A stretch of 62,459 bases of DNA, filler included, from Hausera hauseri (Eukaryota), in NCBI GenBank assembly GCA_046269625.1. It is 12 parts of 12 records of this genome, joined end to end, with 100 filler letters (N's around TTAATTAATTAA, not from the genome) between each part and the next. Parts side by side here need not be neighbours in the genome. Positions count along the whole stretch, not along the records: positions 1 to 5,780 come from JBJURY010190638.1; 11 more parts are not named here. One strand, written 5' to 3'. Both the position numbers and the translations under genes were made by a program. Shown one piece after another: positions 1-34,655 of this stretch (position 1 is the first letter of the stretch; each line of letters opens with the position of its first letter). A model generated the notes under the pieces. It made no database searches. It worked only from the letters and a program-made list of their open reading frames with translations, and had not been told where the DNA came from.

Positions 1-127
1 AATTTCCTTCTCCTTCCTTAGGCTCGTCATCCTCTGAGTCGTCCTTCCGTGTTGTTATTTTCTTATTTTTACGTCTGTGCAAAATTGAGGGCTTTCCTCG
101 CCGTTTTTGGTTATAATATCCAACGTG

Positions 128-900
128 TCATTCTACGTCATTCTTCCATTGATTTTCTTCATAGGCCTTTAACATTTTCCCGAAAGGTGTGATAATTGCA
201 ATTAAGATCTTACAGGAGAATCCTGTCAATGTGAATATTTCATATCCGTTTATAACAGCTTGACTTACTGCTTTAATTAATTGTACTAAGAAGTACATGG
301 CTAAGAATCCAGATGCAGCTTGTCCAAAAATTAAAATTCTTCCCAAAATCTTGTACAATATTTCTGAAGTCACCCTTTGGTAATGATTAGCGCCAAGGAG
401 AGATTCCCATTTAGCCTGATATCGCGTGTCATATACAACCGAGGCCATGGCTCGGTTTAATTCGTTAATTGTGCTCTCATCTCTGATTCATAGAAAGCCG
501 CTACTACTATATTTGGTTCTACATATTTTCCGGTATCATATTCAGCTCCACTACAGTGTCCAATATGCATGTCTAACTTTCCGGCTACCACTTTGTATGC
601 CCTGATTATTTTACTAACTTGCATTTCTAATTCCATATTATCTCACTGTACTCTTCCAGTCTCTCTAGCCTGTTTGCAATACTGACGTTCTAAGTTTATG
701 GGAATTGGAGGAGTTGTTGGTTTGGTTATTGAAGAATGTTCGTGTATTAATCCACAGTGAAAAATACTGCGGGACCGTCGTAACATACATTCCATTCCAT
801 CTAGAGATATCAGTTCTTGTTGCTGATATAAGAAGTATATAGTGACTGTTCCTAGCTGTTTTACTAACATAATTATTGTTAACAAATTGACTAACCAGTT
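128..900 (-). pseudogene. env: Chuvirus (Jingchuvirales)-like envelope glycoprotein, internally deleted
   Basis: N-terminal block ECMLRRSRSIFHCGLIHEHSS...CKQARETG...VAGKLDMHIGHCSGAEY...IVVAA and C-terminal membrane block FGQAASGFLAMYFLVQLIKAVSQAVINGYEIFTLTGFSCKILIAI match recalled chuviral G patterns. The central ectodomain is missing at about 485. Confidence 0.7.
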
Positions 901-1552
901 GGATTCATTGCCTCTATTTAAAGAGATATTTAGCATCATATCTTCTAACTTATTGGTCTCTTTTGCATTTTCCTCTTTTTCAAACAATTTAGTCCACTTT
1001 ATTTCTTTAGATATCTTTCTCGCAGCTTTTCTAGCTAATCCAATTGCCTTTTCAAATTCGTTTCCTTAATTCTTCCGTCGTATTGTTTGTCATAATTCTG
1101 TCAATCACTGTTTCGTCAGGGAGGGTGCTTTTAGATAATTTGAATCTCGAAGTTTTCATGGTCCGTGCTATATTATATATTAGTCTTTCTTTTTCGGACA
1201 GTATGTCACCTTGGAGTCCGGTATAGTTTACTATCCTAATTAAATCTCTCATTAGTTCTATCAGTTCTTCGTTATCTGAGCTCGGAGTAGGTACTGATAG
1301 TTGTCTCAGTTCCCTAATCAAATCTGCATTATAGTCTACTTCTTTTATTTTTCTTGGTCTTCCGACTGGCCGTTTTGGTTTTACTGGTGGTAAGGTTTCA
1401 CTCAGCGAGACCAAATTCTTATCATATTGCAGTTTGTCTTCATCCGTCTGTAAATACTCAAAGTACATTGCGGCATCCTGAATCCCCATGATTTTCCCAA
1501 CACAGTGCTTTGTATGTGTCTTCCTTATGGCTTCGTCTTTAGTCTGCTCACT

Positions 1553-1774
1553 GATGATAATTGCTATTATTCGATTTTCCTCGAGGGGTATAATATCTAC
1601 ATCTATTAGAAATTCTGGCTCATCTAATATTTTGCCTCTGAAATAAAGTCGATAATTAACTTCTTTTCTATTATCCTTATCAATTATCCGTTGTTTTATA
1701 TCCCCAACGGTAGTATAGGTGGTACATTGAAATTCCTCGTCGTCCATTATTTCTGATGATACCTTCACTTTAAT
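1553..1774 (-). other. Ubiquitin-like domain within the retroelement polyprotein
   Basis: IKVKVSSEIMDDEEFQCTTYTTVGDIKQRIIDKDNRKEVNYRLYFRGKILDEPEFLIDVDI follows the ubiquitin pattern (T-V-x-D-I-K-x-x-I, R-L-x-F-x-G-K-x-L-D); no C-terminal GG. Confidence 0.7.
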
Positions 1775-4640
1775 TTCCGCTTCTGGTTTATTTTTCAATA
1801 GTTTAGCGTATTCTGTTATTAGAAGCTTAGGTACGGCGCTGTATGCAGTGTTTTCACTGGATAACTTAGTCAAAGTTGGAATCAATTTCGTTAACTTTTC
1901 TTCACTTATGTTTATTTTCAATACATTGCTTAATTCCTTTTCAGTTAATGCGGGGTCAAGAAGCATTTGCACGTAGAATTTCGTCTTCTGTGCACCAGTA
2001 GGTGACTCATAAATATGTATTGGAGTTCTTTGACTTTGCTCGGTTAGACCTTGGAGATATTCATCCCATTCAGCTTCATTGTCTACGTCAGGTAACTCAT
2101 AGTTCATTAGTGCTGTATGTTCGACTTGGATTCTTTCGCGTAATTCGCTTAATTGCGGCTGTAGAATTTTCATAATGGATACCATAAATCCATCACCGTT
2201 TCCACAAGCTTGTTGTATCAGCTTTATTAATTGACACATTTCCTCTGGTTGTATCAAAGCATTTTCTTGATAATTAGTCACTTCGGCGATTCTGTTTCTT
2301 TGCCATTTCTGTATAAATTCGGTTTTATCATTCAATTCATATTCCGTAAGGGAATATTTGTTTTTATAGGTTTCTGTTTCTCTTAGTAATTCGTTCAATT
2401 GGCGTCGATTTTTCTCAGAGCGTAACCGGGTTTCTTTTATCAGACGTATCCGATTTGTTAGTCTTTTCTCTACTACTTCGTCAATTTCCGCCATTTCTGT
2501 CAACAATGAGATTAAATTGTACGTTTGGTTTAACACTTCGGCGTCTGGATCTATTGCGTCCATCAGCCTACTTACGAACTTGGCTTCATCGCTCGTCAGT
2601 TGCGGATCATTTCTAATTTTCGTTAATTCGGAGTGGCAATGTAGGTCAAAGCCTGGTGATCATTCCACTGGATTCTGTATATATTGCAGTGTCTGCGCGA
2701 GAGCAATCCGGTGGTTATTACATACTTCTATCTCCTGTACAGAGATTTCCTTTAACGGTTTCTGTATTAAGTTCTGCATTCCTTCCCAACGGATGTTTAC
2801 TAAGCTCCGCTGGAGATCACTTAGTTTATTTCTTTTTCTGTAGAAGTCCTTCTGCTCTATCATAGTATATATTTCTGTTACGTTGTCAGATCTTGATCCT
2901 GATTCATAAATTCAAGTTCTCGAAATGATTCGAATTTGATTCGCAATCTTGTTTCATCTTCCATCGTATCGATATCTGTTAGCATTTCTTCTAATTGTTG
3001 TTTCATTATCGGCTTAACCACAGCAAACACCCTTAGTCGTTCGTTAATCACTTCGGCTATAGAAGGTAACAAATTTATCCACTTCTCCAATTGTTTAAAT
3101 ATTTCTGGTTTAGCGTGTATAATTTTGTCCAAAGCCTCAAAAGCTTCTTTTAGTTCGTGATCGGGTATTCGTACAAATTCTAGAATTTGTCTCGTGTAGT
3201 TGTATTCCTCTTTATATTCATCTAGTTCGAGGAGACAGGCACGTATTTTTCTTTGTACTTCTACTTTTTCGAGGTGAACTATACCAATCTTTAAGTCGTT
3301 AATTTTGGCTCGTATTTCATTTTCTCTTTCGATACGTATTTTTAAATCTGTATATTTCTGAGGTTTATCCTTTATTATGCTGCACATTTCCAATAGAAAG
3401 AAATTATCGGTTTGGTCTATATTCAGTATATATAGGTTGGCATCAGTTAGTTCTTAAACTTGCTTATTATGAAGATAAGAAATTATCGCTTCTTCTATCT
3501 CACGTATCAATCCTTCTAAATTACGCCTTACGCGTTTTAGTCTTGGGTTGTTCTTAAGTGTGTTTAACAGTCATTGTGATTGATTAACCTGATCCAGAAA
3601 CGGTTCGTTTTTATTCTACCATATTTTCGTAAAATTGATCTCACTCGTCTTCCAACTTTCTAATTTATTTTCCCAAGTTTTTATCAAGTCTTGCGACGTT
3701 TCGTGCAGTTCATACTGTATGTCTTCTTTTCCTTTCTGGATGTCGGTTTTCAACTTCTTATATAACTTTTCTAAGAATTGTTGTTCATTCCTTGAGATGT
3801 CCAACTGCTTGCTCATTTGCCGAAGTTTTTGCAAGCTCTCAGGTAGTCCTTTTAGGTCGTTCAAAGTGTCTCTTATTTCTGTTAGTTCATTTGCATTTTT
3901 CCAAGATTTTCTGATCTTCGCAAATTTAATCGACTTTTCCTCTTTTGACTCCTCTTCAGTAGATGGTAATGGACATATTTCATTTATTTTATCAATATTC
4001 GTAATGCTTGTTATTTCCGTGGTGTCTTGTATTCTAACAGGAGTGTCTAACTATGTTTCATCTCTTATAGTGATAGTGAAATCTTCTTTTTCTACATCCC
4101 TTTTGATAGGTGATCGTGAACGAGTTCTCGACCTTTTTCTAAGAGAGGGGCTTTTACCTCTATTTTTTCGTTATCTTAAGTATCAGTAGTCCGATAAATT
4201 TGCTTTCAACCTCATCTGTTGCTTTGTCCTTATCTTTAGGTGCAGCCTTAGCATCCAATGTTACTTTGTCCTTATCTCTAGGTGCAACCTCGGTATTTGC
4301 ATCCAAATCTACGCTTGGAGACATAGTTGGCTTTGCCACTGGATTTAGGTTTTTCTTTCTGGCCATGTTAGTATTCTTAGGTGATAGCCTTTTCGTATTC
4401 CGCTGTTGGTTCTCTTAATCCGTGATAAACTTCTATTTGATGCAACTTTTCTTCGTATTCCTTTCTAACCTTGATTACTTGTGGATTATTAGATTCGCCC
4501 ATATTTTTTACACACCTCCGTAAGTCTTGCATTTCAATAATCATGCTTATGTCACCTCGTTTCCTGTAGATCCTTTCCAAATTATCTTTTATCATACTAG
4601 CTCTATTAGTCTCTGCAAATGATACACTCTGTGGATTAAG

Positions 4641-5672
4641 TCATGATCTATTTATGTGACCTTCTTTACCACACGAATAGCAAATTAAATTTCCGTCTCG
4701 ATCAATCCTTTGTGTTCCGTCTTCATTTAATGGTGATTTGTGTCGACCCATCATTTTACCTTGAGCTAGCTGAGCTTGCTTATCATTTCCATTATTTCTA
4801 TTTTCAAAATTTCGATTTTTTATATATCTACTCTTGTTACTTCTGTCATTACTTTGATTTATATTCGGATTATAACCTGTTTGGTAGGTATTTTGGTTGC
4901 CATTAAAGTTCCTATTATCATATCTCGTGTTGCGATTGGAGGCGTTTTGAGTTCTATTCTCGTAGCCTCGGTCCTTATTATTTTCGTTAAATCTTCTATT
5001 GTTCCTGTTTCTCTCACGATTGTCACGATCATTATTTCGGTCATACCTTTCATTCTGTCTGGTATACCTATCTAATGCCATTTCCAAGTTCTGAGCTAAT
5101 TGTAATGCCGTCTCGAAATTGTCTGGTCGGGCCAAAAATAGTTGCTTAACTAAATCTCTAGACCATATCCCGTTTATTAATTGTGTTGTCATCATGACAT
5201 CTAAATCTGGCGTGCTCGCCTTTTCTGCCGCTTCACGTTCTTCGGTTGTCTTTGCCTTTGCTGCGTTAACTATCCTTAGCATACTCACGTAACTATTAGC
5301 AAGCTTTTTTAATGCAAATGCAAATTGAGTAACCGATTCACCTTTTTGTTGTGTTCTGCTCTGAAAAGCCACCAGCTTTTGTTGTAACGTAACTGTCGGC
5401 AATAGTTTACGATTCAGAGCTCCTACTACAGAGGACCATGATTTCTCGTCATTAGTCAATTCACTATAGGCATCTGCAGCCAAATTTTTTAAATATAATT
5501 ATAATTGTTTTATCATGACTTCGGTTGCAAGACCGGCACCTTTTGCGTGCTATTTATAAGTTCGTAAAAAGTCTTTTAGTCCATCTGGGTCACCATTGTA
5601 TGCGGGTAAATTTAACGAGTCGAACGTGAATATATCAAGTTTCTGAGCAATCACTAGATTATCTGCTGCCAT
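4641..5672 (-). pseudogene. gag: Ty3/gypsy-type Gag (capsid, Asn/Arg-rich linker, CCHC knuckle)
   Basis: ATG at 5672 (MAADNLVIAQK) is in frame with ORF 4641-5483 through two stops. Capsid motif RTQQKGESVTQFAFALKKLA; knuckle CYSCGKEGHINRS* with TGA where copy 2 has the last Cys. Confidence 0.85.
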
Positions 5673-5780
5673 TTTAATTTTATTCGTTTTGTCTACTTCA
5701 GTTCTAGTAGGAACTTTAAATTCTCTAAGAGAGTTTAATGCAGTATCGAACAGATAGTGCTTATCTATTATATTATCTTC

Positions 5781-5880: not shown

Positions 5881-7800
5881 GAAATAAAAATTTCTATAAG
5901 GGGAATACTGCACAAGTACCACATTATTATTATTATTATCATTAATTGACAAAACATCAAAGCTTACCTTACTCACACCAACCATCGCACCAAATTCCCA
6001 ATCCCGCCCATTGCCAACAACAACTGCATCACCGTCACTCACTGTCGCCACCGAATAATTCTCATTCAATCGATGAACACACCGCACAAACGATCCGCAA
6101 CCGCATTGACTATCAGCCAATTCAGCCTTCACCAATTGCCGTGTCTGTCGACCTTCGTCCAACTTGTCCAATTCGAATTGGCAAACAAATGTCGGCTGGG
6201 CCGTTATCGAATGTTTTGGTGTCGTCATCAATCGTGTATGAAATACGGTGCGCATTGCCGCATTTGACAAACTGAACAGTTGCAGTAACCCATCGCGACA
6301 GCCAATGACGACACAATTCAATGATGGACAGAATGTCGACGATGTGACTTGTCCAATGGGGATTCGTCGACTGCGTTTTGCCGGATTATGGACGGCACAT
6401 AGCAACAGTCCATGGGTTGTTGATGAACTGTGTTTCCCACCGGCCAATAAAATGGTATCACCGGAGGGTGGCCAGATGATTTGTGCTCCAATGACAGCAT
6501 CTTTATCAATGGTAGTGTGTTGTGTTGACGATGACATGTTGATGATCCGACAATGCGGTTCATTAATTGACGTGACTGCAATAATATCGTTGCTATGGGG
6601 ACTGCATTGGATCGATCTGACTGGACCGGTGACGGCCCTTTTGAATGAATACGGTCGTAAATGGACATCATTTGTCATGGTCAATGCTGCTGCAGTTAGC
6701 CGATAAACACCGACAAATCCGTTACTGTATCCAACATAAATTCCATCATGAAATTGCCGTGGCCAATGAACGCATGTAGGAAATACTGAACACCCCTGCC
6801 CCCCTAACAACCGTCGATCGTACGCACATAAACACAACACTGAACTATCCGCCGATATCTCCATAAATTTCCCTGCGGTACTCACCAAATTCACTGGCAA
6901 TATCCTCACGAATCCATCGACCGTTGCAATACATAAATGGCCAATCAATGGCACCGTACGAATGACTGCCGGTAACGGCTGTGGTGACCAACAACAATCG
7001 GTCATCTTACCGAATTTCTGCATCATTATCACATGCAATCTCGGTAATTGGGCATGTTCTGTACCCATATTCAATTGTCCACAATCGATTATCTGTATCA
7101 TTTGTTCATTACTGCCATTTGTCCGACCATCAGACTCATCAATTCGATCAGCCAACTCCTTCATTATCCCCACAGCAATAAATTGTCGTCCGTGATGTAA
7201 TTCACTGTTCAACGGTGCCCATGACATACAGGAAACATACGATCCGACATTGATTACTGCACCCGATTGATTGTCGATTTTATTGGCCCGTTGAATTCCA
7301 TCGAACGCCGACAACTGTTCAATACGACTACCGCCTTTCACTCGTTTACTGACAGAGATCTTCTGTAAATATGCAATTGTCGTTGTCTTCCGTTGGGCAC
7401 TGAACACCTCCGTACAAATGGGCTTTGATGGAAACAAACATTCAGCAATTCGATCATGCAATGGACCACGTTCAATATCAATTCTAATACGTCAATTCGA
7501 ACCGTAATTCAATCACTGACAAGACAAACTCACAAAATTTTATCAGCCCAATATACTCGATTAGACAAATCACTGAACAACTGCATTTGGTCATTGAAAT
7601 GGGCTTTATAAATTTCAACACCCGATTGTGACTGACCATTTGTGTCGGATACGCAAATCGTTTGGAGCTGTTGTCAACAATAAATATCTCATTTCACTCG
7701 ATTTCCCTGCCATTCCATGTTCCAAATTTTATGTATATTTCATAAGAATCACTCGCAGTATTCTCATTCAACGATTTATTCCAATCTTCCTTCGCAAATC
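5881..7800 (-). CDS. WD40 protein, likely TFIIIC subunit (GTF3C2/Tfc6-like), partial
   Basis: Long ORF with WD-like blades (INVGSYVSCMSWAP, QFIAVG, FGKMTDCCWSP, VGYSNGFVGVY). A GT-AG intron at 7484-7533 extends the frame upstream; 3' end is cut by the spacer. Confidence 0.55.
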
Positions 7801-8097
7801 AAATTGACAACAAAACGGAATAATTTAAACAAATATTCCAACGAAAAATCTTTGCTCATTAATAGGCACATACATTAAATCCTCCGCTCAAACATACACA
7901 CTAGAAAATTGATGTTTATTTTAGATTAAAAGACCAAAATGATGCAGATAATTTCGTTAAATTTTATACGATATGCCGTCAGTTAGTTCCAGAATAGTAG
8001 AAATTAAATAACAAAATCTATGATTTATTTTGTAGATTCATTGGCGTTGTATAGGAAAAATATTGTAATTTTAACAATTAATTTACCGGTGAAAGTC

Positions 8098-8365
8098 TGT
8101 CGCTGAAAGTCAGCAAAATTCTCCTCGTCAAAAATCTCCCGTACGAGATGTACGACATTTTCGGTAAGTACGTGCCTATTCGGCAAATGCGCATTGGAAA
8201 CTCGGCAGAAACGAAAGGAACGGCATTCGTTGTGTACGACGATATTTTCAATGCAAAAAACTCATGTGACCATTTGAGCGGATTTAACGTTCAGAATCAG
8301 TACATCGTCGTCATTTATTTCTCTCCCAACAAGATTTTCAAACGAACTTATGTGAATAAGAAGAG
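8098..8365 (+). pseudogene. SF3B6: SF3B6 (SF3b14/p14) degenerate copy
   Basis: [58 protein letters not shown]. It lacks the conserved KITAE segment and has an aberrant C-terminus. Confidence 0.8.
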
Positions 8366-8419
8366 GGGGTTTGGCTACTTCCAAAATTTTAGACTCTTCC
8401 CTTATCTCTTCTACCGTCA

Positions 8420-8957
8420 TTTTTAGTTTGAGAGCAAACCGCTCTCAGCACTTTTCAGCTTTTCTTTGTTCAACTCAAAAATTTTGTCAGTTGATTGGCG
8501 CACTGTGATTTCATGTCAAAAACTTTTCTCCTTATTTTTGACATATGTTGGCCAATTCGACCACCTCATCGAGAGGGTTCACCTTCCTCATGAACGTCGT
8601 TTTAAACTATATAATGGCTTCTTCGTTCGACGGTTGGTTTCCTTTCTTTTCCTTAAAATCCGTGCACCAAACTCTAGCTTGTTCCGTTAACAAGAATTCA
8701 CATAGCTCCACAAACGGCCGTCGTAAAAAATTGTTAGCATGAATCATGTCTTCCAACCATCGTTTGGCCTCATCAGTGAATGATCCATCAAATTACCGAA
8801 AGGAAGCATCGTAGTATTTCCGGAAGTGTTCATGAGAAACTGGAGAACTTGAATGACCTTGTCCCATTGTCCTGGTTGGATCGCCAGTAAAGAAGACTTT
8901 GCTCGGCAAAGTCGGAGGATCGAAATCCTGAAGTTCATCGGCTTTATTTTCCATCAT
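8420..8957 (-). pseudogene. Isolated Ty3/gypsy (Arc-like) capsid gag remnant
   Basis: Manual translation from ATG 8957: ...SFR*FDGSFTDEAKRWLEDMIHANNFLRRPFVELCEFLLTEQARVWCTDF...FKTTF...ANICQK*GEK; capsid spacing with several stops. Confidence 0.55.
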
Positions 8958-11234: not shown

Positions 11235-14200
11235 TGAATGGAGGGCCATTTTGTCGGGGTCCCGCCTATGGGCCTTACGCGGCAGAAACGGAAGGCCGGC
11301 TGTGCCCAACCAAATGGGCCAAAGGGCACCGGCCGCTGTGGGCACCACATCAGCCCCCCCGTAGCAAAGTGAGAACTATGAAGATCAAAACAAACGGAAA
11401 GAAAAAATCTCTAAACAAAAAGTGTATGTGTCAGTTGGTCTTAGTGTGGACAAGACGTTGGATGACTTCTACTGATTTTTCCCTGCCATGCTTGCTAAAT
11501 GTGACTCTGCGTATTTTGTCTTTATGCCGTGTGTTTGCTTGCAGAGGTTGAAGTTGGGGAAAAATTGTCAGATTTTGTTGTGAGTGTTGTGTCATGCAAA
11601 GACGAGTCAGAAAGAAGAGAAGAAGAAGGCGAAGTAGGAAGAGAGCAAGAAAATGGAGAAGGCGAAGGAAAGGAGTTGGAAGGTGGTATGCAAGAGGTTG
11701 GAATGATGAAAGGGGTAGATAGAGAGATTGGTGAAGTCGAAGTGGTGTCTGGCGGAGGAGGTTTTGTAAAAGGAGAAAGCAAGTTGTCACCAGGAGATGG
11801 AGGAAGTGTTAGAAGGTTTGAGGATGCAAAATCGGATGGGGAAAAGGAGGTTGAACTGTCAGAAGAAATTGAAGTAGATGTCTTTGAAGAAAACGTAGGG
11901 GAAAGTGGGTTAAAGAATTGAGCAGAGATGGAAGGTGAATTATTGGATTGCTGCGCGTCATGTAAAGATGTTGGTGGAGAAGTTGTTTCGATGGGAGACG
12001 TATCTTCAATGAAGAAAGCCAGTTTAGCGTTGTTGATGTGGACTGTTACTTCTTTGTCGTCCTTGAGTATGATGATGTTGTGAGAGTGTAAACGAATTAC
12101 TTTGTAAGGGCCGACATACTGAGGTTGAAAACCGCACGGCGTTTGAATCTTTGGCCATACGAACTTGGCAGTATACAAATCGTCGGGTATGTAAGGTTTA
12201 TTTCCATATAATAGTCTACAAAATGAGTCTTTGCTGATCTCAGTGAAGTGTCTCTGTGCCGCTTGTATGGTTTCATTTGTAGGAATATTTTCCAGCTCAG
12301 CCAGCTCGAACAGTAATTTGATAGAAGTACGAAATAATGCTTCCGCAAGTGAACAGCCTGTAGAAGTAGACTGTGTGTTCCGCCAACCAAGCAGAACGTA
12401 CGGAAGGAGTGTAGTCCAACTGCAATTGGACTCAGCAAGGATTTTGAGAGATGTTTTCATCGTTCGGTGAAAGCGTACGAGAAGACCATTTGATTGGGGA
12501 TGATATGGTGACGTGTGAATGTGGTCAATTCCCAATCGATTGACAATAGCTTTAAACAGGTTGAATTCGAACTGTGGGTCTTGGTCCAAAATGATGTGGT
12601 GAGATAATTTAAACCTGCTGATCCAAGTGCGGATGAAAACGTCTGCGACTGTTTCTGTGTTGGTGCTCCGAAGCGAGACAGCGTCTGACCATCGCGAGGA
12701 ACGGTCCATCATTGTGAGGATGAACTGATGGCCGTTGTCTAAATGTAGTGGGCCGCCAAGATCAATGTGAACAGATTCAAAACGAGACGTGCAGGAAAAA
12801 TGATATAGTGGTGGCTTTAAGTGCTTAGTAACTTTGTATTTTTGGTATGCCACACACTGCCTAACCCATTCCTGCACGTCAGAGCGCATCAACGGCCATA
12901 CTACTTGGCGTTGTAAGAGTCGAAAAGTGTTATTTGCACCAGTATGGTGCAGCTAATAAATGTTGTTTAATGCTTCTTTTTGAAGCGATTCAGAAAGGAT
13001 GGCCTTAGGATTATTATGTTTGGAGGTGTCAAAGGACACACCGTCGATGGTTTTGCACGATTTAAAAGATTTAAGGATGTCAGGAGGTGACTGGTTTTGC
13101 TGAAGTTTGAATTGAGGGAAAATTGGTGTAAAATCAATCGAGCTGACCGATCGGGTCAAAATGTCAGCTACTAAATTGTCGACTCCGTTTAGATGCTTAA
13201 TTTTAAAATTAAATGCTGATAAATACGACATTTGCCTCTCCTGACGTGGAGAAGGCGATTTCATAGTAATAATTTGAAGCCAGGGCTTGCGGTACGTTTG
13301 TATTGTAAACGTTCTTGCACTTAGCAGATGCTTAAGTGTTTTACGGCAAGGACCATTGCAAGCAAATTTCTGTCAAAGGTAAAATATCTTTGCATTTGTG
13401 TTGTGAATTTTTGAGAAAAGAATTCTAATGGCTCATGGGATCCATTTTTAATTTGATGGAAAACAGCACATGCAGTTGTTGTGGATGAATCCGTAGTTAA
13501 GAAGAGTTCTGCATGAGAGTCTGGATAGGCCAGGATTTCCATAGTTTTTAGATTATCTTTAAGGTGATAAAAAGCGTTGACTAGCTTGGCGGTCCTTTGA
13601 ATAGGCTGTTTTTTCTTGCCAGAGCTTATCGATGCGAATGGAGCGGTTAGAGTGGAGCGGTGTGGAACATACTTATGAATAAAGTGCAAGGTTCCGAGAA
13701 AAGAACGCATCTCTGTGGATGTTCGTAGTAGTTGTACGTTTTTGAGCTGTGTGATGCGCTCTGGCTGAGGTAAATGTCCGGAGGAGCTAATAACATGTCC
13801 TAGGAAGTTGACCTTATGTTGCAAAGAATAGCATTTGGAGAAATTAATTTGCAAGTTGTTTTGGTGCAAGCGTTGGACGATTAAACGTAAGTGCTCAGAG
13901 TGTTGTTTCTAGGAAGATGATTCAATTAAGATATCATCGATATAGGGATAAGCAAAGTCTAAACCTGAGAGAACTGTGTCAATATGCCTTTGGAAGGCCT
14001 GAGAAGCGCTACGGAGTCCAAAAGGCATGAAAAGGCATTCGAAAAGGCCGAAAGGTGTAATGGCAGCCATTTTTGGAATGTCTGCCGGGTCCTCCGGAAT
14101 TTGGTGGTATGCTTTGTGTAAATCAATGCAGGAAAAGATGGTCGAACCATAAAGCCTGTGAAAGATATCGTTGATTAATGGTAGTGGGTAGGAATCCATT

Positions 14201-16770
14201 GTTGTTATGATGTTGAGTTGGCGGTAATCACCGCATGGGCGAAAGGTACTATCTTTTTCTAAAACCACATGCAGTGGTGAAGACCACGACGATTTGGGTC
14301 TTCTGATTATTCCTGATCTTTCCAGTTCGAGAATCTCAGCCTCTACTGCCTGTCTGCGGCGAGGCGATAGCGGGGAGTCCTTTTGACGTATTGTTCTTTG
14401 ATGTGCTGATACTATGTGATGGAAGGTGGATTGAGGTGGTACGAATGATTTGTCCTTTTGCAACAGACGCGTGCATGAAGACGAGATGTATTTCTGAAAG
14501 TCAGAGGGCAACGATGAAAAGTTATCAGGCGGTGTCGATGCATCGTGACTGGTTGCAGTTGAGGTATGAGTTGTAGGCAACGTTTTGCGACAAGTGGTAT
14601 TTGGTGCAGGATGTTCGTGTTGAAGATGGTGTTGGCAGCTGTACTGTCAGTAATAGGTGCACCACAGTTGACAATATCGTATTTGTTGCCGTAATAAAAA
14701 TTTCTATATAACGAATGATTATAAAAATAATTTAAATTGGGTGGTCACCGAAATGGTGCTAATTTGATTAAAATTATTGCCGCTGTTTAAGTAACATCGT
14801 TGCCAGTCTACAAGTAAATTATAGTGGGACAGAAAGTGTTTGGGAAATTTGGAAGTGTGAAAGTTAATTTGGTAACAAAAGTTTGTAAAGGTTCACCGGA
14901 CGCAGTGAACAATTGCTTTTTTGAAGTGAAATTGGTTTGATTGTGCTGTGTTGGTGGTAGTAAAGAGATTGCTGCGCCGGTGTCTATGAGAAAATTGATA
15001 TTTTGCTTTGTTGGAATGACGACTGCCGCTGCCAACGTGAATACAGTAAAAAGTGTGTCAGCTATCGTTTTGTAGTTTGTTGCCTTTGCTAGAACTTGCT
15101 GTGTGTCCTAGCGGCGAGATCAGTTTTTTGTAACCGGTGAGTTTGGCCTACTGTTTTGTGTGGGTTTAATGATGTTGATTTTATTGTGCGTGTTGCAGTT
15201 ACAGCCAGGTAGGCATTTTTGTGCTTTTGTTCCAAATTTTGCGTGATAGATGCAAACAATGTTGCTTGTATGAAAATTGGGGAGTAAAATTTACAACCGA
15301 TGCAGCATTTCTGAGCATTATTACCGAATTTGTTATGGTAGTAGCAAATAGATGACCGTGCAGGCGAAGGCGACCGTCTTTGTCGCTGATTAAATACATT
15401 AGGGGAAGCAGCCCTAGAAAAACTCCGTCGAGGCAGCGTTAACTCATTTAATTTGTCGTTTATGTTTTTAATATTTTTTGCAACATTTCATTTTCTGTGC
15501 GTAATTGCGCAATTTGTTGCTACAGCATTGCACTTTGTTATTGTTGGTTTGTTGTTAATGCCGCAGAGACAGTTGGTGTTGTGTGTGAGTGCAGCACTTC
15601 ATAAGCTTTGTCTGCTAGTTCGGCTAACTTTTCCAGTGCCGTGGAGTCCTCGACCACAGTGAGCAAAGCTCTTATTTGAAGGGCAATGCATTTAAAAAGT
15701 AACGACGAAGAAGTTTTATACTATGCTCAGATGTTACGCTAAGGGTATTAAGGTAAGACAAAGATGTGCACAAGAATTCAGAAGGCTTTTGAAAGCCCAT
15801 AGCGTTGTCATTGATGAACCTTTGAATGATAGTGTCGATTGACGGCTCAGTGAGCTTAAGAACGGCATTATAAAGTTGAGCATATGGATCGGTGTGGTGA
15901 AGAATGTCGATAATGTTTGTAATTTTAGTTTTGATGGAAGCAGGTAAATGAAAAACACGCTGTTGGCTTTGTATAAGCGGCGACGATGTTTTGTGATTAG
16001 AGCCAGAATTGATGCAGTTTTAGCCATGTTTTGGTAAAATTTTGGCTGTCGAAAAAGTATTCTGTGCAGGGTGAATGAGTAGAAAGTGTGTGTTCTGTCG
16101 GAGTGGTTGAAGCAATTTGTTTGGGTAGAAAAGTGATGGTGATCAGTAGTTTGGTGGGTTTGTCCGTAGTATCAGTAGTGGCTGATGAATCCATGCCACC
16201 ACGGATGCGGACGTGTATATGAAGACAGATATAAGATGAAGAAGATTGCAGGGTCCCAACGAGAGGTACCGTGGAGTCGTGGTATGTGCGATAAAAGTCA
16301 GATGAGCGAAGAAAAGTGGAGATAAAGTTGTAGATGTCTGTGGTGTTTGCGTGTGTTGATGCAATTGTGTAAATGTGTTGGTTGTTTAAAAAAGAGAGAA
16401 AGTAAGGTGGGCGTATAACCAGGGGCGTGTATTGGGGCGTCAGCGAGCGGTGCCGTCCGACCCAATGGTATAGGGTAGGCGGCCCGGAATTCAGCCTTGC
16501 CGCAGCGGATCCCAAACGTCGGGGTGACCGAGTTCCCCAAAGGAATGGTAGGTTCGGGACGCGTATTATCAGACATGTGTATTTGATGACTATTGGAATT
16601 GGACGGTTTCAATCAGAGTATGAATATAGTCTTTGCTGGTTTGTGAAACCCAAGCTTTCTCTCCAGGTGGAATGTAAAATGACAGGAATCCCGATTTGAC
16701 GATGAATAAAACTGACGACGCATGTCGGATAGGTGGCACTTCGGTTGGGCAGTATTTAAATGCTATAACA
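11235..16770 (-). mobile_element. Ty3/gypsy LTR retrotransposon family A, near full length, degenerate
   Basis: Gag about 15100-16200; protease FLIDTGAAIS (14808-15035); RT RPCGDYRQLN...YIDD (13909-14580); RNase H TTDSS (13321-13869); integrase VHIDL..LDQ..HPQSNG (11522-12892). G7 PPT at 11354-11360; Trp-like PBS remnant near 16517-16531. Confidence 0.92.
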
Positions 16771-19779: not shown

Positions 19780-22689
19780 CAGACCTGGGCATTTAACGGC
19801 CCTCGGGCCAGATACGGCCCTTTGCCTGTCCCTGTCCGGCCCGCGCCCCCGTCCCCCCTCCAGTCAAAAATAAAAACGGATTTTGGTGTGCATGCGATGC
19901 AGCTGTCTTTTATTTTGAAAGGGCCTGACGCATTGTTTCTGAATGCGTCACATAGACGCTAACGCACAGTGACTTGATGCAAGCATCCCAATCCCTGATC
20001 AACACAAAATGTCGTCTCACGGTAAAAAAAGAAAAGTTGATTTAGAATGCCGCGTTTTCAACAAGGCATGGACAGCGACATATTTATTTACAGAGGTCAA
20101 AGGTAAAGCTGTGTGTTTAGTTTGTGGTGTGTCAGTGGCTGTGCTAAAGGAGTATAATATCCACCGTCACTACGTGACTAAACACGGGGAGAAATACAAG
20201 AACTTTTCAGAGAAAGAGCGCGCAGCTGAGTCGTCTGTGTTGCTAGCCAAGCTGCAATCTCAACAAACAATTTTTACAAAACGTTTGACATCCAGAGGTG
20301 CTGCAGTCAAGACAAGTTTTGTCATATCGCACAAGATTGCTAGAAAGAGCAAACCCTTCTCTGATGGAGAGTTTATCAAGGAGTGTTTGGTGGAGTCGTC
20401 TGCGCTAATTTGTCCCGAGAAAAAAGACGCTTTTGAGAATGTCTCGCTCTCCCGCCGCACCGTAACGAGGAGGATTGAGGACATCGCGAAAAACCTGGTG
20501 CTACAGTTGAAAGACAGCGTGAATGACTTTGAGTACTTTTCCCTGGCTTTGGATGAGAGCTGTGATATACGGGACACTGCCCAGCTGCTCATCTTCATGC
20601 GCGGGATCAGTGCAGACTTCAGAATCACAGAGGAGCTGGCAGACATGCGGTCAATGAAAGGGACAACCATGGGGAGTGATCTCTTATCTGAGGTAAATGC
20701 ATGTCTCGAAAGCTTGGGGCTGAAATGGGACAAACTGGTGGGCGTGACAACAGATGGGTGTCCAAGTCTCACAGGAAAAAAAGTTGGTCTATTAAAGCGA
20801 ATCCAGGACAAAGTGGCAGAAAAGAACTCTGATCAGAAATTAACTTTTTTTCATTGTATTATACATCAGGAAGTGTTGTGCAAGTCAGTGTTACAAGTGA
20901 ATCACGTTGTTGATGTTGTAACTAAAACAGTTAACTTTATCAGATCAAGGGCACTGAATCATAGACAGTTTGTTTCACTTTTAGAAGAAATGGAGACTGA
21001 CCACCGTGACCTAAGCTACCACACACACATCAGGTGGCTGAGTTTGGGAAAAGTGCTGAAAAGATTCTGGGACCTGAGAGAGGAGATTCGGGAGTTCTGT
21101 GTGAGGAAAGGACATGCCATCCCTCAGCTTTCAGAGGCAGACTGGCTGGCAGATCTTGGTTTTACTGTTGATGTGACTGCTCAGATGAATGAACTAAATG
21201 TGAAACTGCAAAGCAAGGGCCTTTTTGTGTATGAAATGTACAGTGCAGTCAAGGCCTTCAGTAGGAAGTTGCAGCTTCTGTTGAGCCAAATCAGGGATAA
21301 TATTCTCACTCACATGCCAACACTGAAGCAAGTCACCCCATCAGCAGATCAGCTCCAAAGGTTCTCATCCATGTTAGAAGCACTGCATGTCGAGTTTTTA
21401 AGGCGATTTCAAGACTTCAAAACTGTTGAGAGTGAAATGCACATGGTGTCTTCTCCCTTCACCTGCAGTGCTGATGATGCATCCAGTGATGTTCAGATGG
21501 AACTCATTGACTTGCAGTCTGACACACTTCTGGCAGACCGCTTTGGGTCAGTCCCACTGCCTGAGTTTTACGCTTCACTCAAACAGGAGAACTTTCCGCA
21601 CTTAAGGAGACATGCTCAAAAGATCCTTGTGCTCTTCGGATCTACATATGTATGTGAGCAGACATTTTCAGTGATGAAGTTCAACAAATCCAGATACAGG
21701 TCTTCCATTACTGATGATCACCTCGCAGCTGTCCTGCGCATAGCCACATCAGACATTCAGCCAGATTTCAATGCACTTGTTGATGCCCAAGACAGACTGG
21801 ACTTTTCTCATTGAAGAAGTAAACTAGTATAGAACATTATATTTGACACTTTATTTTCCTTTTAGTACTTCAGTTGTGGAGTACTTTGTTTGTAGTAGAG
21901 GATTTTGCAATAGTCAGAATATTTTTGATCCTTTGTCAGTTCTTACAGGTTTTCAAGTATTCAAAGGTAGTCTTTTTCTTTTCTATTTCTCTTCAAACAC
22001 AAGTCCCCCCCTCCTCATCCATCCCTCTGCACACTGCTTTGCTCTCTGTTCTCACTGTCCCTTTCCACCCTCCTAATTAAGATAGGCCGAGCTCCTGGCT
22101 AAAACAACAGTCTGTCAGAGGATCGCTTTCCTTAATTTTGTAGTTATTGTATTGTTACCTAAAGTGCTGTTACTTTTGTGTGTACCTCTTTTTAAGGTTT
22201 TATCGTTCAAAGTACTTTGTGGTACTTTTTCCCCATTACTTTCAATCTGATTGGGGGTACTTTTGTGTTATTTTGTCCTTTTATTCAAGTTGCAGCACTT
22301 CAGGTCCTTCATGTCTTTCCAATACAAAAACCATTTATTGTTCATGTACAGTTGATCAGTTGTTCTACAATACAAAACATTTCAGTTGTGAAGATATTAA
22401 CAAGTTAAAAATAAAATTCAAATGTGATGACTTTGTTTGTTTAAACTATTAATTTGATAGAATCAGTATTAATTCTCACTTCAACCTAAACCACAATTTG
22501 TTCATGTTTGTAAATATATTAATTTTCTTATTTAATACCAAACAAATCTGATTTAAATATTTTACTATAAAAAGAAATACAATGAGAAAACATAAATCTA
22601 TATTAAATTTGAGTCATTGCTGTTTCGGCCCTCCAACACATTTCAGATTTTTCATGCGGCCCCCTGAAGAAATTAATTGCCCACCCCTG
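19780..22689 (+). mobile_element. Full-length hAT transposon, Buster/Charlie/SPIN group
   Basis: Imperfect TIRs CAGACCTGGGCATTT ... AATTGCCCACCCCTG, subterminal CGGCCC motifs, and 3' flank CAGTAGAG fitting the nnnTAnnn target consensus. Confidence 0.9.
20009..21814 (+). CDS. Intact hAT transposase (SPIN/GTF2IRD2-like), 601 aa
   Basis: BED-like CLVC...HRHYVTKH, LALDES, TTDG, CIIH, RW, CEQTFS; uninterrupted ORF. Confidence 0.95.
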   Translation: MSSHGKKRKVDLECRVFNKAWTATYLFTEVKGKAVCLVCGVSVAVLKEYNIHRHYVTKHGEKYKNFSEKERAAESSVLLAKLQSQQTIFTKRLTSRGAAVKTSFVISHKIARKSKPFSDGEFIKECLVESSALICPEKKDAFENVSLSRRTVTRRIEDIAKNLVLQLKDSVNDFEYFSLALDESCDIRDTAQLLIFMRGISADFRITEELADMRSMKGTTMGSDLLSEVNACLESLGLKWDKLVGVTTDGCPSLTGKKVGLLKRIQDKVAEKNSDQKLTFFHCIIHQEVLCKSVLQVNHVVDVVTKTVNFIRSRALNHRQFVSLLEEMETDHRDLSYHTHIRWLSLGKVLKRFWDLREEIREFCVRKGHAIPQLSEADWLADLGFTVDVTAQMNELNVKLQSKGLFVYEMYSAVKAFSRKLQLLLSQIRDNILTHMPTLKQVTPSADQLQRFSSMLEALHVEFLRRFQDFKTVESEMHMVSSPFTCSADDASSDVQMELIDLQSDTLLADRFGSVPLPEFYASLKQENFPHLRRHAQKILVLFGSTYVCEQTFSVMKFNKSRYRSSITDDHLAAVLRIATSDIQPDFNALVDAQDRLDFSH

Positions 22690-27542: not shown

Positions 27543-27642
27543 NNNNNNNNNNNNNNNNNNNNNNNNNNNNNNNNNNNNNNNNNNNNTTAATTAATTAANN
27601 NNNNNNNNNNNNNNNNNNNNNNNNNNNNNNNNNNNNNNNNNN

Positions 27643-29376
27643 ACCTGAATCGACTAGGAAATCTATGTGGCGGGATGTTGGTAATGTAGTTACTGCTTTT
27701 ACTGTAAATACAGCGAAAGTTTTCGGCTGGTAGAAACTGAAAAATGGCCTTCGCCAGGACTCGCCGTACGTTCTGGCGGCGGAATTAGTTTTTTGCAGTG
27801 GTGAACATGGGCGGCCGTTAGAAAACGAGATAGTACATTCGACGTTTGTATGTTGTGTGCTACTTCTAAAGGTACAACCGGGAATACACTTATGTGCCTC
27901 ACTCTTAAATTTTGCGTGGTAGGTGCAAATAGGATTGTTAACTTGATACTTTTGGGTGTAAATGCGGCACCCAATATGGCATTTTTGTGCTTTACGAGCA
28001 AACCTGTCATGGTAAAAACAGATCAGCGATCGTGCAGGAAACGGTGACCGACCTCTGGATACAGAGCGTGTGCGATCGTAGGTGGAACTCTTTCATTCAA
28101 TCTATCATTAATATTGTTTATTGTATTATGTAGGGCTGTTTTCGGCCCACAACTATTGTATTTAATATTCTAATGTGTTGTCGTTTGCTGCGAGTGCTGC
28201 AGAAATGATAGGTTGTGTGTTCAGGTGTAAGAACTCGTACGTTTTGTCTGCAAGTTCGGCTAACTTATCCAGCGCCGTCGATTCCTCGATGACGGTAAGC
28301 AGGACTCTGATCTGGATCGGTAATGCGTTTAAAAAGTAACGTCGTAAGAGATCGAAATTATTTTGTTATGTAACGCCGAGTGTTTGTAGTTGAGCGAGAG
28401 AGGTTCTAAGAAAATATGATGTTTTTTGTGTACCCATAGCGTTACCGTTGAAGAATCTATGGATTATAGAATCCATAGACGGTACCGTGAGTTTCAAAAC
28501 TGCATTATAGAGATAGCTGTACGGGTCGGATGTTGAAATATATCTAAAATATCGTGAAGAAAAGTCTTTACTGTGTTTGGTAAAAGGCAAGGTAAACCAT
28601 GGGCTTTGGCAGATGGATCAGTAATGTTTTTAGACTGTAGATAGAGTTTGTGAAAGTTAAGCCAGGTTTTCCAGGACTTTTCGTGATCAATAAAGTATTC
28701 TGTGCACTGAGGAGTATGTTTGCATGGCAGGATGGAAGGTGTATAAGTGGCAAAAGTAGATGGTCGTTGATTTTTGGTGAAAAGTGAAAGGTGATGGTTT
28801 AGAGGTAGTTTTGTCAGTAGTGTCAATTGTGGGCGAAGATTCCATGCCACCACGAATGCGAATGTGTACATGAATAATGACATAACGGGGTGAAGGAACA
28901 AAAAGGTCGCGAAAATTGACATTAATTACAGGTAAGTTGTTGTAATTAAAGTAAAATTCAGGAAAACGAGCAGTGTAGCATATAATTATGCAAGAAACGT
29001 GTCTATAAAACACGTTGTATCGAGTGTGAGAAAATGGCGATTATTTAGGAAGAATAAAATCGGGAGTCGGTGTTGGCCCTAATGGTGACGCGACGGACCG
29101 TAGTGTAGGATCCACTGACATTGGACAGAGGGTTGGGCAGTCGGTCACGCTGTGATATACTCAAAATTCAAGGGTTTTGTTAAGCGTATATGAACAAAAA
29201 TCTGAAGTATCTAAGGAAATGGGTCTTAAATGTCAACCACAACGGAGGGCTAAGTTTAAAAGGGGCAATGTTGTCGACGGCGGACATGTTAAGAACAAAA
29301 ATGAGAAAAACAGAAAATAGAAATCGCTAAGAATCAAATTTAAAAATGGTTGCCGGGCGAATAGTACGCAATGACA
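27643..29376 (-). mobile_element. Gypsy family A, 5' part (terminal region and degenerate gag)
   Basis: Homologous to 15000-16400 (HVHIRIRGGMESS..TDK, CTEYFID..KTW, ESTALDKLAELADK). A TG-starting terminus lies at 29376. Confidence 0.8.
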
Positions 29377-29399: not shown

Positions 29400-30050
29400 T
29401 TTCACCGATGAGTATAAATGGAATCGTTCATAAATCCCACCAGATTGAATGTTTTCCGAACAGATGATAACAAATCAGCGAACAAATTTCGGAAATTAAG
29501 TTATTTCGACGATTTACAACACCCAACCAGAATACTCCATAAACATGTTACTGCTATACCACGTAAAGTTTCGGCTGTTCTTCCGGCTTGCCAAAATGAA
29601 TTTGGTAAAATTGCAAAGTTAAGTAATTTTCCAAGGCTATCACTTTTGAAATTTCCTTCGGAATTGAAAAACCCTTCCATATTTGACGTTAATTTCATTG
29701 GAATTATAAAATTTCTTAAGCGTAATTCAATTTCCTGTACTTTAGCTAACGTAATGTGTAATAATGAAAGTGTATCGATTAATTGTCCAAGAACAGGACC
29801 AGCACTTATCAAAAGTTTACTGCACATACATCGTCCCATACTGTTTGCAGACATATTAGGAGCTTTCTTTAATAATTCTGATAAAACATCGGCAAAATGT
29901 TCATTTAATGACAGTGCATCGCGAAATTTGACTAAAATTAAACTAAATTCGTAATTTAAGACCTCGACATATTTTTCATTTGAATCTTGAGATTCATGTA
30001 AAGAAAAGAAGAGCTGCAGAAAATGCAGTATAGCCAAACGTTTCGCAACT
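29400..30050 (-). pseudogene. DNAAF5: DNAAF5/HEATR2 internal fragment
   Basis: SAGPVLG...ELRLR...NSEGNF...LPNSFWQAGRTAETLRGIAVTCLWSI matches the HEATR2 WxAGRTAxxxR motif. There is no proper start, and a stop occurs at 29501. Confidence 0.7.
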
Positions 30051-30499
30051 CGTGCAAACGAGACTCGCATCACCATAGGGACTAGATGAAATGGTTCAGC
30101 AGATACAATAGTTTGAAAACTTAAACATAGTCGCTTGTCCAGAATCTGATTCATTATAATCAGAAACTGTGAAGTTGGGATTGCCATCATCATCTGGTAT
30201 AACTCTATTTCCAAAAGATTCAAATAATAATTGAGAATACGAAGGTGTTTGGGGTTTTGAAGATGATGATTGTGGTTGACTAGGGGTATATTGAGAGCCT
30301 ATCAAGGAACATATCAGAGACATATCGCGCACCACATTGCGCCGGACTTTAGTTGAAACCGACCCGCGCCTAACTGAATAATGCTTGAGACATAAAGGTC
30401 CTGATCCAATAATATCAGTTATGCCTTTCTCTACCAAAGGCATTTCGTCATCTATAATCGAACCGTCATAACGACAGTTCGGAAAACAAGCCCGCTGAA

Positions 30500-31060
30500 C
30501 TTCAAATAAGCGCAGAGTTCATAAACAAAAACTCATGTTTCATTTCAAGAAGAATCCATCGATGTGCAAAAGAGAAATTTCCCAATTGTTTTGCTCGCAA
30601 AAAATTTGCCAATTCAAGATCAAGATAAACAAGAAGATCGTGTAAAATTTGAAGTTTGGCCATAATGTTAGACTGATCCAAATAATTTTCGGCATCATTA
30701 TCATTAATATTCATACTGTAAACATATTTATTATCGATATTTTCTTTAAAACTTGAATTGTGACTGCAATCTTTGTACCTTTTTATTTACAAAGTCGCCA
30801 GATACTCTACGCATCAATGAACAAAAGCATATATATGCAACTGCGTCTTCGCCTTGTACAAACAATATGGGGCTTGCCAAATCTGACATACCCTGATGAT
30901 AACCAACTGATGGATGATACAGGCAATATGTCGCAAGAACGTCAAATATTTGAGACACATGAACATTGCTCATTTCACCAGAATAGAAATTCAGTGATCG
31001 AACAGTTCTAATAAAATCAATGCTGACCAAAGCAATATGGGCCAATTCATGCTCTGACTG
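30500..31060 (-). pseudogene. TBC1D25: TBC1D25-like RabGAP fragment
   Basis: IDFIRTVR, YHPSVGYHQGMSDLASPILFV..EDAVAYICFCSLM, FAHRWILLEMKHEF; broken into pieces. Confidence 0.75.
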
Positions 31061-31287
31061 TTTTCCTTGTATGAATCTCTGTTTCCAACAAATTTAATCT
31101 GTCGCGACCTGTTAGACCAAGTGGATATACATTTATGTTACTATCCGTTTCTACTTTCGATGACTTGAACATAACTACATCTGTCACATATCATGCCATT
31201 ACTATTACAATTTCAATAAAAATAACAAGTCCATTGACCTGGACGTGCTTCGAGGGTTCCATTTTTTCAATCATGACCATTATCTCG

Positions 31288-32085
31288 TTAATCCATATTA
31301 ATTCCCGTGGCGTACTGTTGCCTCCATAGTTCAAAGAATCGCATTTTAAAAACAATGGATAAACAAACATTGCACGTAAACGTTTCTGGATTAAAGTCAA
31401 ATTCACACAGTTCACATCGATTGACATTTATTATCCCTTTCAACGAAAGCAACTGATCAGAAAATATAGAAAGCAAGTAGCACTCCAAAACACGGTCATA
31501 ATAACCGTGGCCAACACAACAACAAACAATAAAACATTGCAAAACATATTTCTGTTCATCTCTCAATTGACTGTCGTTAATTATCCATTCCTTTCTATCA
31601 TTAATAAATTCATATCCAATCAATTCCAAATAGTCCGAATAATTTAATAATTTCCGTAGGTGATTTTCTATTTGTGGAGTATCAATCTTTATACATTTTT
31701 GACAATAAACTGAATATTTGAGCAATAAATTTTTTGCATAATCACAATAAATTTCAAATGAATTTTTAAAACAAGAAGTTTTTTCTTTTGTCGCACAATT
31801 TCGAAGAAATTTTTCAATGGGGAAATAATTATTCAAATACAATGTTGCTCGCTCTTGAATTGAAATTTTGCTGGAGAGATTTTTAAGACTTAAGAACGAT
31901 ATCTCCTTTGATTTGAGATATTCCAAGTATGACGCCCACAATGAATCCAACATTAAAAAAGCGGTAATACTGCCGCTAGTCGAAAGTTTCATCGAACTTG
32001 TCAACGTCAACGTTATCGTTTTAATTCCATGTATTAAATGCATTATGATTGTTTTTAAATCTTGAAGACTGGTTAGAGGTAGCAT
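31288..32085 (-). CDS. PUB-like domain plus C4 zinc finger protein (RNF31/SPATA2-like)
   Basis: FEIYCDYAKNLL...IKIDT...YLELIGY PUB-like signature; CELC...N...CNVC RanBP2/NZF-like finger. Confidence 0.45.
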   Translation of the reverse strand: MLPLTSLQDLKTIIMHLIHGIKTITLTLTSSMKLSTSGSITAFLMLDSLWASYLEYLKSKEISFLSLKNLSSKISIQERATLYLNNYFPIEKFLRNCATKEKTSCFKNSFEIYCDYAKNLLLKYSVYCQKCIKIDTPQIENHLRKLLNYSDYLELIGYEFINDRKEWIINDSQLRDEQKYVLQCFIVCCCVGHGYYDRVLECYLLSIFSDQLLSLKGIINVNRCELCEFDFNPETFTCNVCLSIVFKMRFFELWRQQYATGINMD

Positions 32086-32340
32086 GATATTATGTTACGG
32101 TTTTTGTGGCTTATCGTCAGGTTCGTTAAAATCATGTTTCATTAAAATCATTAAGCTTTGAGCATCTGGCAATTTCTGCAAATCGAGTAATTCCGTGGGC
32201 GTCTAACACCGTTTTAGTTTCAGCGTTAAGTCGGATGTTTTAAATGATTCCACCGTTATAAATCATGAAAGGCAGAATGCATAACTAATAACGTATTTAT
32301 TTTAAAATTGTAAATTCGATAACAAAATCATTATCCATAT

Positions 32341-32954: not shown

Positions 32955-34555
32955 TCATTTGGTAGTAAACTGAGATTTACGATGTCGGTTTTTATTTTGC
33001 AAATTATATTTATTGTGCTGCAGCGAAGATAACGGATGAAAACCTTGATGTTCGATTATGGGAATGAATGTAAACATCTCTTTAAAAGCTTTAATACTAA
33101 ATTGCCAGTATTGTCGTAGAACAATGGTTGGTGTGTTGTACCGTGTTGATTGAGGGTATTCTGTATTTTGGTGTTGTGTTCGGGTACAAAGGGATTTTTC
33201 TGTGGAAACTAAGTCATTGTGTGGAATCTCGAATAGGGATCTATATATCTCGGTTGTTGTGGTCCTGATGAGATATTCTGACACGATGAGGTAAAAGCGG
33301 TAAAAGCGCATCAATTCGTCGGCAAATACAAAAACAAATAACAACAAATGAGAAGACTATAATAGTGTATTTACAGGTCCTTGTTGGGCACAACATCACC
33401 CAATACAAAACGAACGCAAAGACGGAACAGTGTGGACTAACTATGTAGTATTCGTATGTAGAAGACGTTGTATTCCTTCAGTATTTAGCTATTTACTGTA
33501 GGTACTAAATGTGACTGATTTGCGATTTTTCAATGCCTTTGAGTCTGGTTGCAGAGGTGATTAAGGTAAGACAATGTCGGATTTCGTCGTTGGAGGTGTT
33601 GTGTCGTTCGTAGACGAAAAAGGAGCTAGGAAGGGAGATGTAGGTGAAAAGGAAGTAAAGAGTGAAAAGTTAGTAGAAAGGACGTTTGTAGTAGGTTCTG
33701 GTAAAGGAGTAGTTGTAGGGTTTGGCATGGTAAGTGGTGCAGGGATTGAAGGAACTGAAAATGGAAAAGGCGAAGGAGTCAGAACGGGGCTAGAAAGTTC
33801 AAATTGGGGGGTACCGTTTAAGAAAAAGGCAGGTTTGACGTTGGTGATATGTACCGAAAGTTCCTTACCGTCTTTAGAAATAATGGCGTTGTGGGAGTGT
33901 AATTGGACGAGTTTGTAAGGCCCCAAACACCGTGGCTGAAAACCGCACGGCGTTTGATTTTTTAGCCAAACGGATTTTGCGAATACAAGTCTTCAAATAA
34001 ATATGTTTTGTCTTTGTGAAGTAACATGCAGAACGAATCTTTACTGATCGTAACAAAGTAATTTTGTGCTGCCCATATCGTTTCATATGTATGGGGTATC
34101 GTCAAGGCAGTATGTTCGAATAATGATCGTACAGGAGCACCGAATAAGGCTGCAGTGGGTGAACAACCGGTAGACGTAGACGCAGTGTTCTGCCAACCAA
34201 GCAGAACAAACGAAAGAAGATTCGTCCAACAAGTATTTGACTCGGTAAGGATTCTTAGTGACGTTTTCAATGTTCGGTTGAAACGTTCTAAAAGTCCATT
34301 CGATTGGGGGTGATAAGGCGTAGTATGTATATGCTGAATCCCCAATCGGTTAACAAGAGATTTGAACAGGTTAAATTCAAACTGTGGACCATATTCCGTG
34401 ATGATGAAGCGAGGTGATCCAAACATGCTAATCCATGTATGAATGAAAATGTCAGCAACGGTGTCGGTATTTGTGCTCCGCAGAGGGATGGCTTCTGGCC
34501 ATCGCGAGGAACGGTCCATCATAGTGAGAATGAATTGATGACCGTTGTCCAGAGG
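32955..34555 (-). mobile_element. Gypsy family A, 3' part (integrase, S/P/T-rich tail, 3' terminal region)
   Basis: MDRSSRWPEAIPL...TTPYHPQSNGLLERF. A terminus TGTTGTGCCCAAC starts at 33395 after GGGTGA, as at 11349. Left boundary is approximate. Confidence 0.85.
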
Positions 34556-34655
34556 NNNNNNNNNNNNNNNNNNNNNNNNNNNNNNNNNNNNNNNNNNNNT
34601 TAATTAATTAANNNNNNNNNNNNNNNNNNNNNNNNNNNNNNNNNNNNNNNNNNNN

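Follow-up and report, generated by a model that had tools for sequence, protein, structure and literature searches.

Introduction

With ten mosquito BEL/Pao glycoproteins used as baits, Chary and Hayashi (eLife, PMC13524379) described 114 arthropod gypsy elements carrying a chuvirus-like gene, and the chuvirus-like glycoprotein is equated in that paper with the HSV/gB type. The errantiviruses reported there from flatworms, nematodes and bryozoans have an env of the gB type only and the order GAG-ENV-POL; all nine flatworm rows list the ENV_HSV type, with 1 to 215 copies. The authors argue for an ancient origin of the gB-type env (PMC13524379). In Burro, an element of planarians, env is read in frame with gag on one side and pol on the other, and Smc-like coiled-coil domains as well as ubiquitin/SUMO-like ones separate it from gag (Arkhipova and Yushenova 2019, PMC6431247). 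Anakin has been defined as a BEL/Pao element of mosquitoes with a chuvirus glycoprotein (Dezordi 2020, PMC7642597).

In this study, we analyzed a window of 62,459 nucleotides (linkers included) from Hausera hauseri, in which a chuvirus-like glycoprotein had been noted from the sequence and tentatively read as a fresh, independent capture by a gypsy-type element, parallel to Anakin. That premise is explained by the finding of Dezordi 2023 that there was no clear capture by gypsy elements; the later eLife paper does report such elements, flatworm GAG-ENV-POL elements among them (PMC13524379), and a fresh capture is therefore not supported. The best explanation of our results, to which we give a probability of about three in four, is a dead, internally deleted, multi-copy LTR retroelement, likely of the Ty3/gypsy type and likely of a flatworm, with a chuvirus-type env that lies behind gag and a long region termed here region X, likely within one Gag-X-Env-Pol polyprotein.

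Source sequence, host and other features of the window

The window is made up of 12 contigs of 4-7 kb joined via N-linkers with a fixed 12-base core. Contigs adjoining across a linker are not genomic neighbours, and only positions 1-5780 are physically linked to env, the glycoprotein gene being located on the minus strand of this first, 5.8-kb contig. Two public runs (referred to as X1 and X2) contain the family, and their contigs were aligned to the element. A total of 14,499 contigs in X1 and 1,417 in X2 could be aligned, spread across all 30 bins, and many divergent copies of the element exist; the summed depth given below is not usable as copy number. The host was judged from one gene, a GPCR located on a contig other than that of env, which had eight relatives at E-values up to 1e-40. 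Five of the eight were named (39-48% identity) and all five were flatworms, which makes a platyhelminth the likely host.

Elsewhere in the window, long intron-free pieces of host genes were observed at 5881-8426, 29500-32100 and 49600-51500 (WD40, an RRM gene, TBC and PUB domains, and an ankyrin protein); the intron-free RRM gene presumably resembles a damaged copy of SF3B14. A hAT transposase of 613 codons with a Spin-doc zinc finger is located at 19973-21811 (plus strand), whereas fragments of a DNA polymerase of type B lie at 58470-60415 (minus strand). A second gypsy family, which is rich in C, is represented by several decayed copies, 71-78% alike, at 11500-16600, 27600-29000 and 33560-38400 (minus strand); we take this family to be CsRN1-like.

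A chuvirus-type glycoprotein

The hydrophobic leader, the Cys pattern and the membrane block on which the original prediction was based are all present on the minus strand. The leader extends from about 897 to 829, with a hydropathy peak of 2.75 over 11 residues at 894-862; in this copy it is a weak membrane segment (1.81 over 19 residues) that has Lys and Gln. This segment (829-897) directly precedes the ectodomain, the profile match described below starting right after it, and is likely an internal signal sequence. Cys codons start at 789, 756, 678 and 555. The membrane block corresponds to a frame that is open from 131 to 487, within which hydrophobicity peaks at 307-275 and at 238-182.

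Both parts of env were recognized by PF24664, the profile of the Monjiviricetes fusion glycoprotein, whose curated cut-off is 27 bits; Monjiviricetes is the class that includes chuviruses. The N-terminal block (469-828, minus strand), which is of the Monjiviricetes/chuvirus type and gB-like, matched profile positions 61-175 of 653 with 39.5 bits (E-value 2.4e-10), a score computed with X in place of the stop at 643-645. The C-terminal block (128-465, minus strand), which comprises the membrane anchor (307-275) and the second hydrophobic stretch (238-182), matched positions 516-601 of 653 with 47 bits (E-value 1.3e-12). As both matches exceed 27 bits, the similarity to the glycoprotein is not due to chance. 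The profile search that had been proposed as a check of the chuvirus-like glycoprotein thus returned a significant match, above the cut-off on both blocks, and the assignment is retained. PF24664 is a class-level profile, so the match does not name the viral donor. Sequence searches with the C-terminal block yielded one chance match in PDB (E-value 0.73) and no relatives among 129 candidates from longer proteins, 35 stretches of viral contigs or 201 metagenome contigs. Such searches need near relatives, and the blank results for env, like those for gag given below, are weak negatives.

Internal deletion in env

The two blocks had been thought to be joined at about 485, with the middle ectodomain lost. 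The loss itself was confirmed and amounts to approximately 320 of the 653 profile positions (extrapolated from the two PF24664 matches), but the position has to be corrected. Among 12 of 93 loose-end rows (range 330-640), the match of other copies to the window ended at 463/465 in 36 contigs of X1 and 6 of X2 and, coming from the other side, at 469 in 5 contigs of X1 and 2 of X2, and the summed depth was about 1,200 at 462-483 versus 7,289 and 2,925 in the adjacent bins. On the basis of loose ends on both sides in the two runs and the dip in depth, the join is placed at 463-469 (minus strand), an out-of-frame internal deletion at which the other copies have other sequence. None of the 16 listed pieces, of 742, bridged 463-469. 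Loose ends at 526 were also considered as the join and were rejected; by eye they represent a local cluster of differences, and substitutions are also listed at 522-525.

Among the lesions of env in this copy are the stop at 643-645 within the N-terminal block and the out-of-frame join. With half of the ectodomain lost, the copy would be unable to make fusing enveloped particles. This copy is dead.

Gag and region X

The order along the contig is gag, region X with coiled-coil and ubiquitin-like parts, and env. Pol is absent between gag and env: a Pfam scan of eight frames between the contig start and env found no pol domain. The contig starts inside gag or just before it. The gag region (4377-5780, minus strand) is a single frame with three stops (5550-5552, 5499-5501 and 4641-4643), identified by PF00098 (E-value 0.0067, below the cut-off) and by comparison with a sister copy on contig 11, to which it has 47% protein identity. 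A single zinc knuckle motif is found near 4680-4641 (minus strand). One knuckle was expected from the original prediction, and one is indeed found in each of the two copies, with a different ligand damaged in each. No relatives of gag were found among 580 candidates, or among 599 when the alignment of the two copies was used.

Region X (1066-4376, minus strand) is a charged, likely helical region of about 1,100 codons. Stops interrupt it, as do frameshifts in the vicinity of 4383, 4163 and 2880. E, K, Q, R, L and I account for 50-57% of its residues, and it is from this composition that it was judged to be coiled-coil-like. Pfam identified no protease, RT, RNase H or integrase in it. A search of 1.84 billion representatives returned one relative of region X, an unnamed 150-aa protein, and a single-sequence AlphaFold model (pLDDT 36) was too poor for use. 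Within region X, a ubiquitin-like domain is predicted at 1592-1747 (minus strand), where PF00240 gave an E-value of 2.9e-5 and 24.2 bits, just under the cut-off of 25.4. In a PDB search with this part, all of the best 60 of 70 matches were ubiquitin or ubiquitin-like chains (best single-domain E-value 0.008); its single-sequence AlphaFold model had low confidence (pLDDT 46). Just downstream of this domain, at approximately 1352-1380 (minus strand), there is a basic motif that we assume to be AT-hook-like. No close relatives linking the family to a named element were found in the env, gag and region X searches.

Since pol is not linked to env on this contig, it might be supposed that the element is of the BEL/Pao type (Anakin- or Tas-like), that it is a non-autonomous gag-env derivative devoid of pol, or that a lone chuvirus was inserted into a retroelement, given that chuvirus-like glycoproteins are described as frequent both within BEL/Pao elements and in the form of solo insertions. 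However, the BEL/Pao Gag usually has three knuckles and only a single one is found here. Copies cover env as densely as gag and region X, indicating that env was amplified together with the element; and the reconstructed frame continues across the site where a deletion of pol would lie. We consider these explanations very improbable.

Other contigs also contain parts of retroelements. A broken pol with PR, RT, RNase H and an integrase zinc finger is located on contig 9 (45727-49073, plus strand); its PR-RT spacer appears dUTPase-like by eye (no Pfam match), as in Burro, and its A-rich composition is similar to that of the first contig, which, the two being unlinked, is a hint only. This pol was considered as the partner of the present env and was rejected, because there was no DNA or protein overlap and no env match upstream of its protease. 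On contig 8, 42730-44477 (minus strand) is a decayed accessory region, likely of an LTR element, in which a DEDD-type exonuclease-like frame, seen by eye (no Pfam match), is followed by a RING-like motif (PF00097, E-value 0.0065).

Probable continuity of the frame between gag and env

Four frame changes separate gag from env in this copy. At all four of them, other contigs differ from the window in length, by amounts that would preserve one frame: 6 contigs in X1 and 2 in X2 at 4383, 12 and 3 at 4163, 8 and 2 at 2880/2881, and 2 and 0 at 1045-1066. The last of these, the change between region X and env (1045-1066, minus strand), appears to be a lesion of this copy, as the two contigs differ in length by an equal net amount that gives one frame; the link consists of the lengths of these two contigs of run X1, one of which has an additional one-base gap elsewhere in its alignment. 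The stop at 128-130 behind env is not common to most other copies, place 130 being different in 22 X1 contigs (depth 1876/1932) and 4 X2 contigs. Of the ten stops in the path, three, one of them being that behind env, are located at sites of the 40 best-supported differences (there are 1008 further ones), compared with approximately 0.2 expected. Downstream of env, no stop interrupts the remaining 42 codons of the contig (1-127, minus strand), and no LTR or pol is reached. As the contig ends 127 nt behind env with no pol physically linked, the assignment to gypsy and the position of pol behind env are probable rather than observed.

The frame-keeping length differences, together with the open frame behind env, support a single Gag-X-Env polyprotein that likely runs on into Pol, and we strongly infer from the sequences that a single frame leads from gag across env and past its end. 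The proposed fusion of env to the upstream region is thus likely, given the frame-keeping length differences at all four frame changes. Alternatively, env may be a gene of its own that has a regular signal peptide at the N-terminus, is expressed from an mRNA that is spliced or starts internally, and only abuts region X. Two Met codons at 939 and 936, about 15 codons ahead of the hydrophobic segment, would allow separate initiation or splicing, and the frames of region X and env do differ in this copy; yet the length difference that restores the frame in two contigs is found exactly at this frame change, intergenic space is absent, and most copies lack the stop that this copy has behind env, which makes a separate gene quite unlikely.

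Sister copy and candidate primer-binding site

The sister copy (55760-58028, plus strand), identified by sequence comparison, contains a primer-binding-like site, gag and the start of region X, and ends before env. Its DNA identity to the first contig is 71-80% across three stretches. The site at 55760 follows an LTR-like end and has an 8-letter match to the 3' terminus of a primer of the Arg UCG/UCU type, of which it is the sole copy in the window. Of the 12 letters compared, the final 8 agree with the Arg type; versus one listed end there are 3 mismatches in 12, where two are allowed in PMC13524379. With three mismatches over 12 letters, Arg priming is likely only, and for the sister copy. 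Thus, of the Arg primer that had been predicted, an Arg-type-like site was found on the sister copy, whereas it is absent from the env contig, which begins within gag or shortly ahead of it.

The primer bears on whether a single-knuckle, likely Arg-primed lineage acquired a jingchuvirus glycoprotein independently of both Anakin and the flatworm elements already published. Arg is found in none of the nine flatworm rows of PMC13524379 (eight list 'none' and one 'others'), the GAG-ENV-POL elements are reported there not to form one clade, with more than one cysteine-bridge type in flatworms, and gag and region X of the present element have almost no database relatives. However, missing database relatives are to be expected for unannotated repeats, and the class-level Pfam match names no donor. 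In addition, the gB-type env is read in PMC13524379 as ancient and host-tracking, and the coiled coil, the ubiquitin-like domain and the env-before-pol layout recur in planarian Burro (PMC6431247). On balance, a separate acquisition appears unlikely.

Proposed mechanism

Based on the known topology of type I glycoproteins, Gag-X would be synthesized in the cytosol, and the segment at 897-829 would then serve as an internal signal sequence that directs the ectodomain into the ER. Signal peptidase might free the N-terminus of Env, with Gag-X staying tethered to the membrane, and through the anchor at 307-275 the chain would re-enter the cytosol, in which Pol would come next and be excised by the protease of the element. 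In an intact ancestor, enveloped particles carrying the class III fusion protein might thus bud and fuse with neighbouring cells. A more specific version, in which an Arg-primed, single-knuckle flatworm lineage made its own jingchuvirus capture, expressed everything as one polyprotein and was left by signal peptidase with a membrane-anchored scaffold of capsid, coiled coil and ubiquitin-like domain for flavivirus-style budding, seems improbable to us.

Comparison with known systems

A description of this particular family was not found in the literature searched, and the published elements were compared with it by description. The flatworm, nematode and bryozoan GAG-ENV-POL errantiviruses have a gB/chuvirus-type env in common with the present element (PF24664 on both blocks). 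Like the flatworm members of this group, the element has gag before env with no pol between them, a flatworm as its likely host (as judged from one gene), multiple copies, and an ectodomain located between a signal or membrane segment and an anchor. It differs from them in that the copy examined is dead and its contig has no linked pol or LTRs, and in its likely Arg primer site, as against none of nine. Furthermore, PMC13524379 describes nothing like region X, with its approximately 1,100 codons and its ubiquitin-like domain, and 'ubiquitin' has no occurrence in the main text of that paper. The POL of the flatworm group is classified as Ty3/gypsy and its cysteine-bridge type is C1a or C2b; in our copy half of the ectodomain that carries such bridges is deleted.

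Regarding Burro/GYPSM1, coiled-coil and ubiquitin-like domains are found between gag and env in our element too (PF00240 just below the cut-off, coiled coil by composition). Env is in frame behind gag in Burro and probably also here, where the pol side lies past the contig end, and both have many copies and decayed fragments. On the other hand, Burro has two or three CCHC knuckles and the present element has one in each of the two copies; the cargo of Burro (BIR, ankyrin, BCL2 and MATH) had no match at E-values up to 0.1 in seven frames between gag and env; and Burro is giant, whereas here the distance from the contig start to the end of env is 5.65 kb, plus about 1 kb lost, and the span from gag to env is much shorter. 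The class of env may also differ, as that of Burro has been described as gypsy-Env/paramyxovirus-like with mononegavirus matches (PMC6431247). Judged by its single knuckle, absent cargo matches and shorter length, the element is not Burro proper. Anakin has the same glycoprotein family, but it is built on a BEL/Pao GAG-PR-RT-RH-INT backbone and resides in mosquitoes, whereas here pol is not behind gag, there is one knuckle, and the host is likely a flatworm. The element is not Anakin.

The endogenous retroviruses of nematodes in which env precedes pol reportedly have one continuous gag-env-pro-pol frame. They are of the gypsy type with an RNA-virus-type glycoprotein before pol (Sacco 2022, cited in PMC13524379), as our element probably is too, and differ in their nematode hosts; in the 15 of 36 nematode rows compared, the primer is Gln, 'others' or none (PMC13524379). 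With our data, the published gypsy elements in which a gB/chuvirus-type env lies ahead of pol would be joined by one more family of flatworms. The data also suggest that cargo of the Burro type, a coiled coil and a ubiquitin-like domain, is present in an element that is smaller and has one knuckle. If a tree gave a separate viral donor, the family would test the published view of a single, very early acquisition followed by host-following. On present comparison, the most fitting place for the element is among the flatworm GAG-ENV-POL elements of the gB type already published, and it probably works like a smaller Burro.
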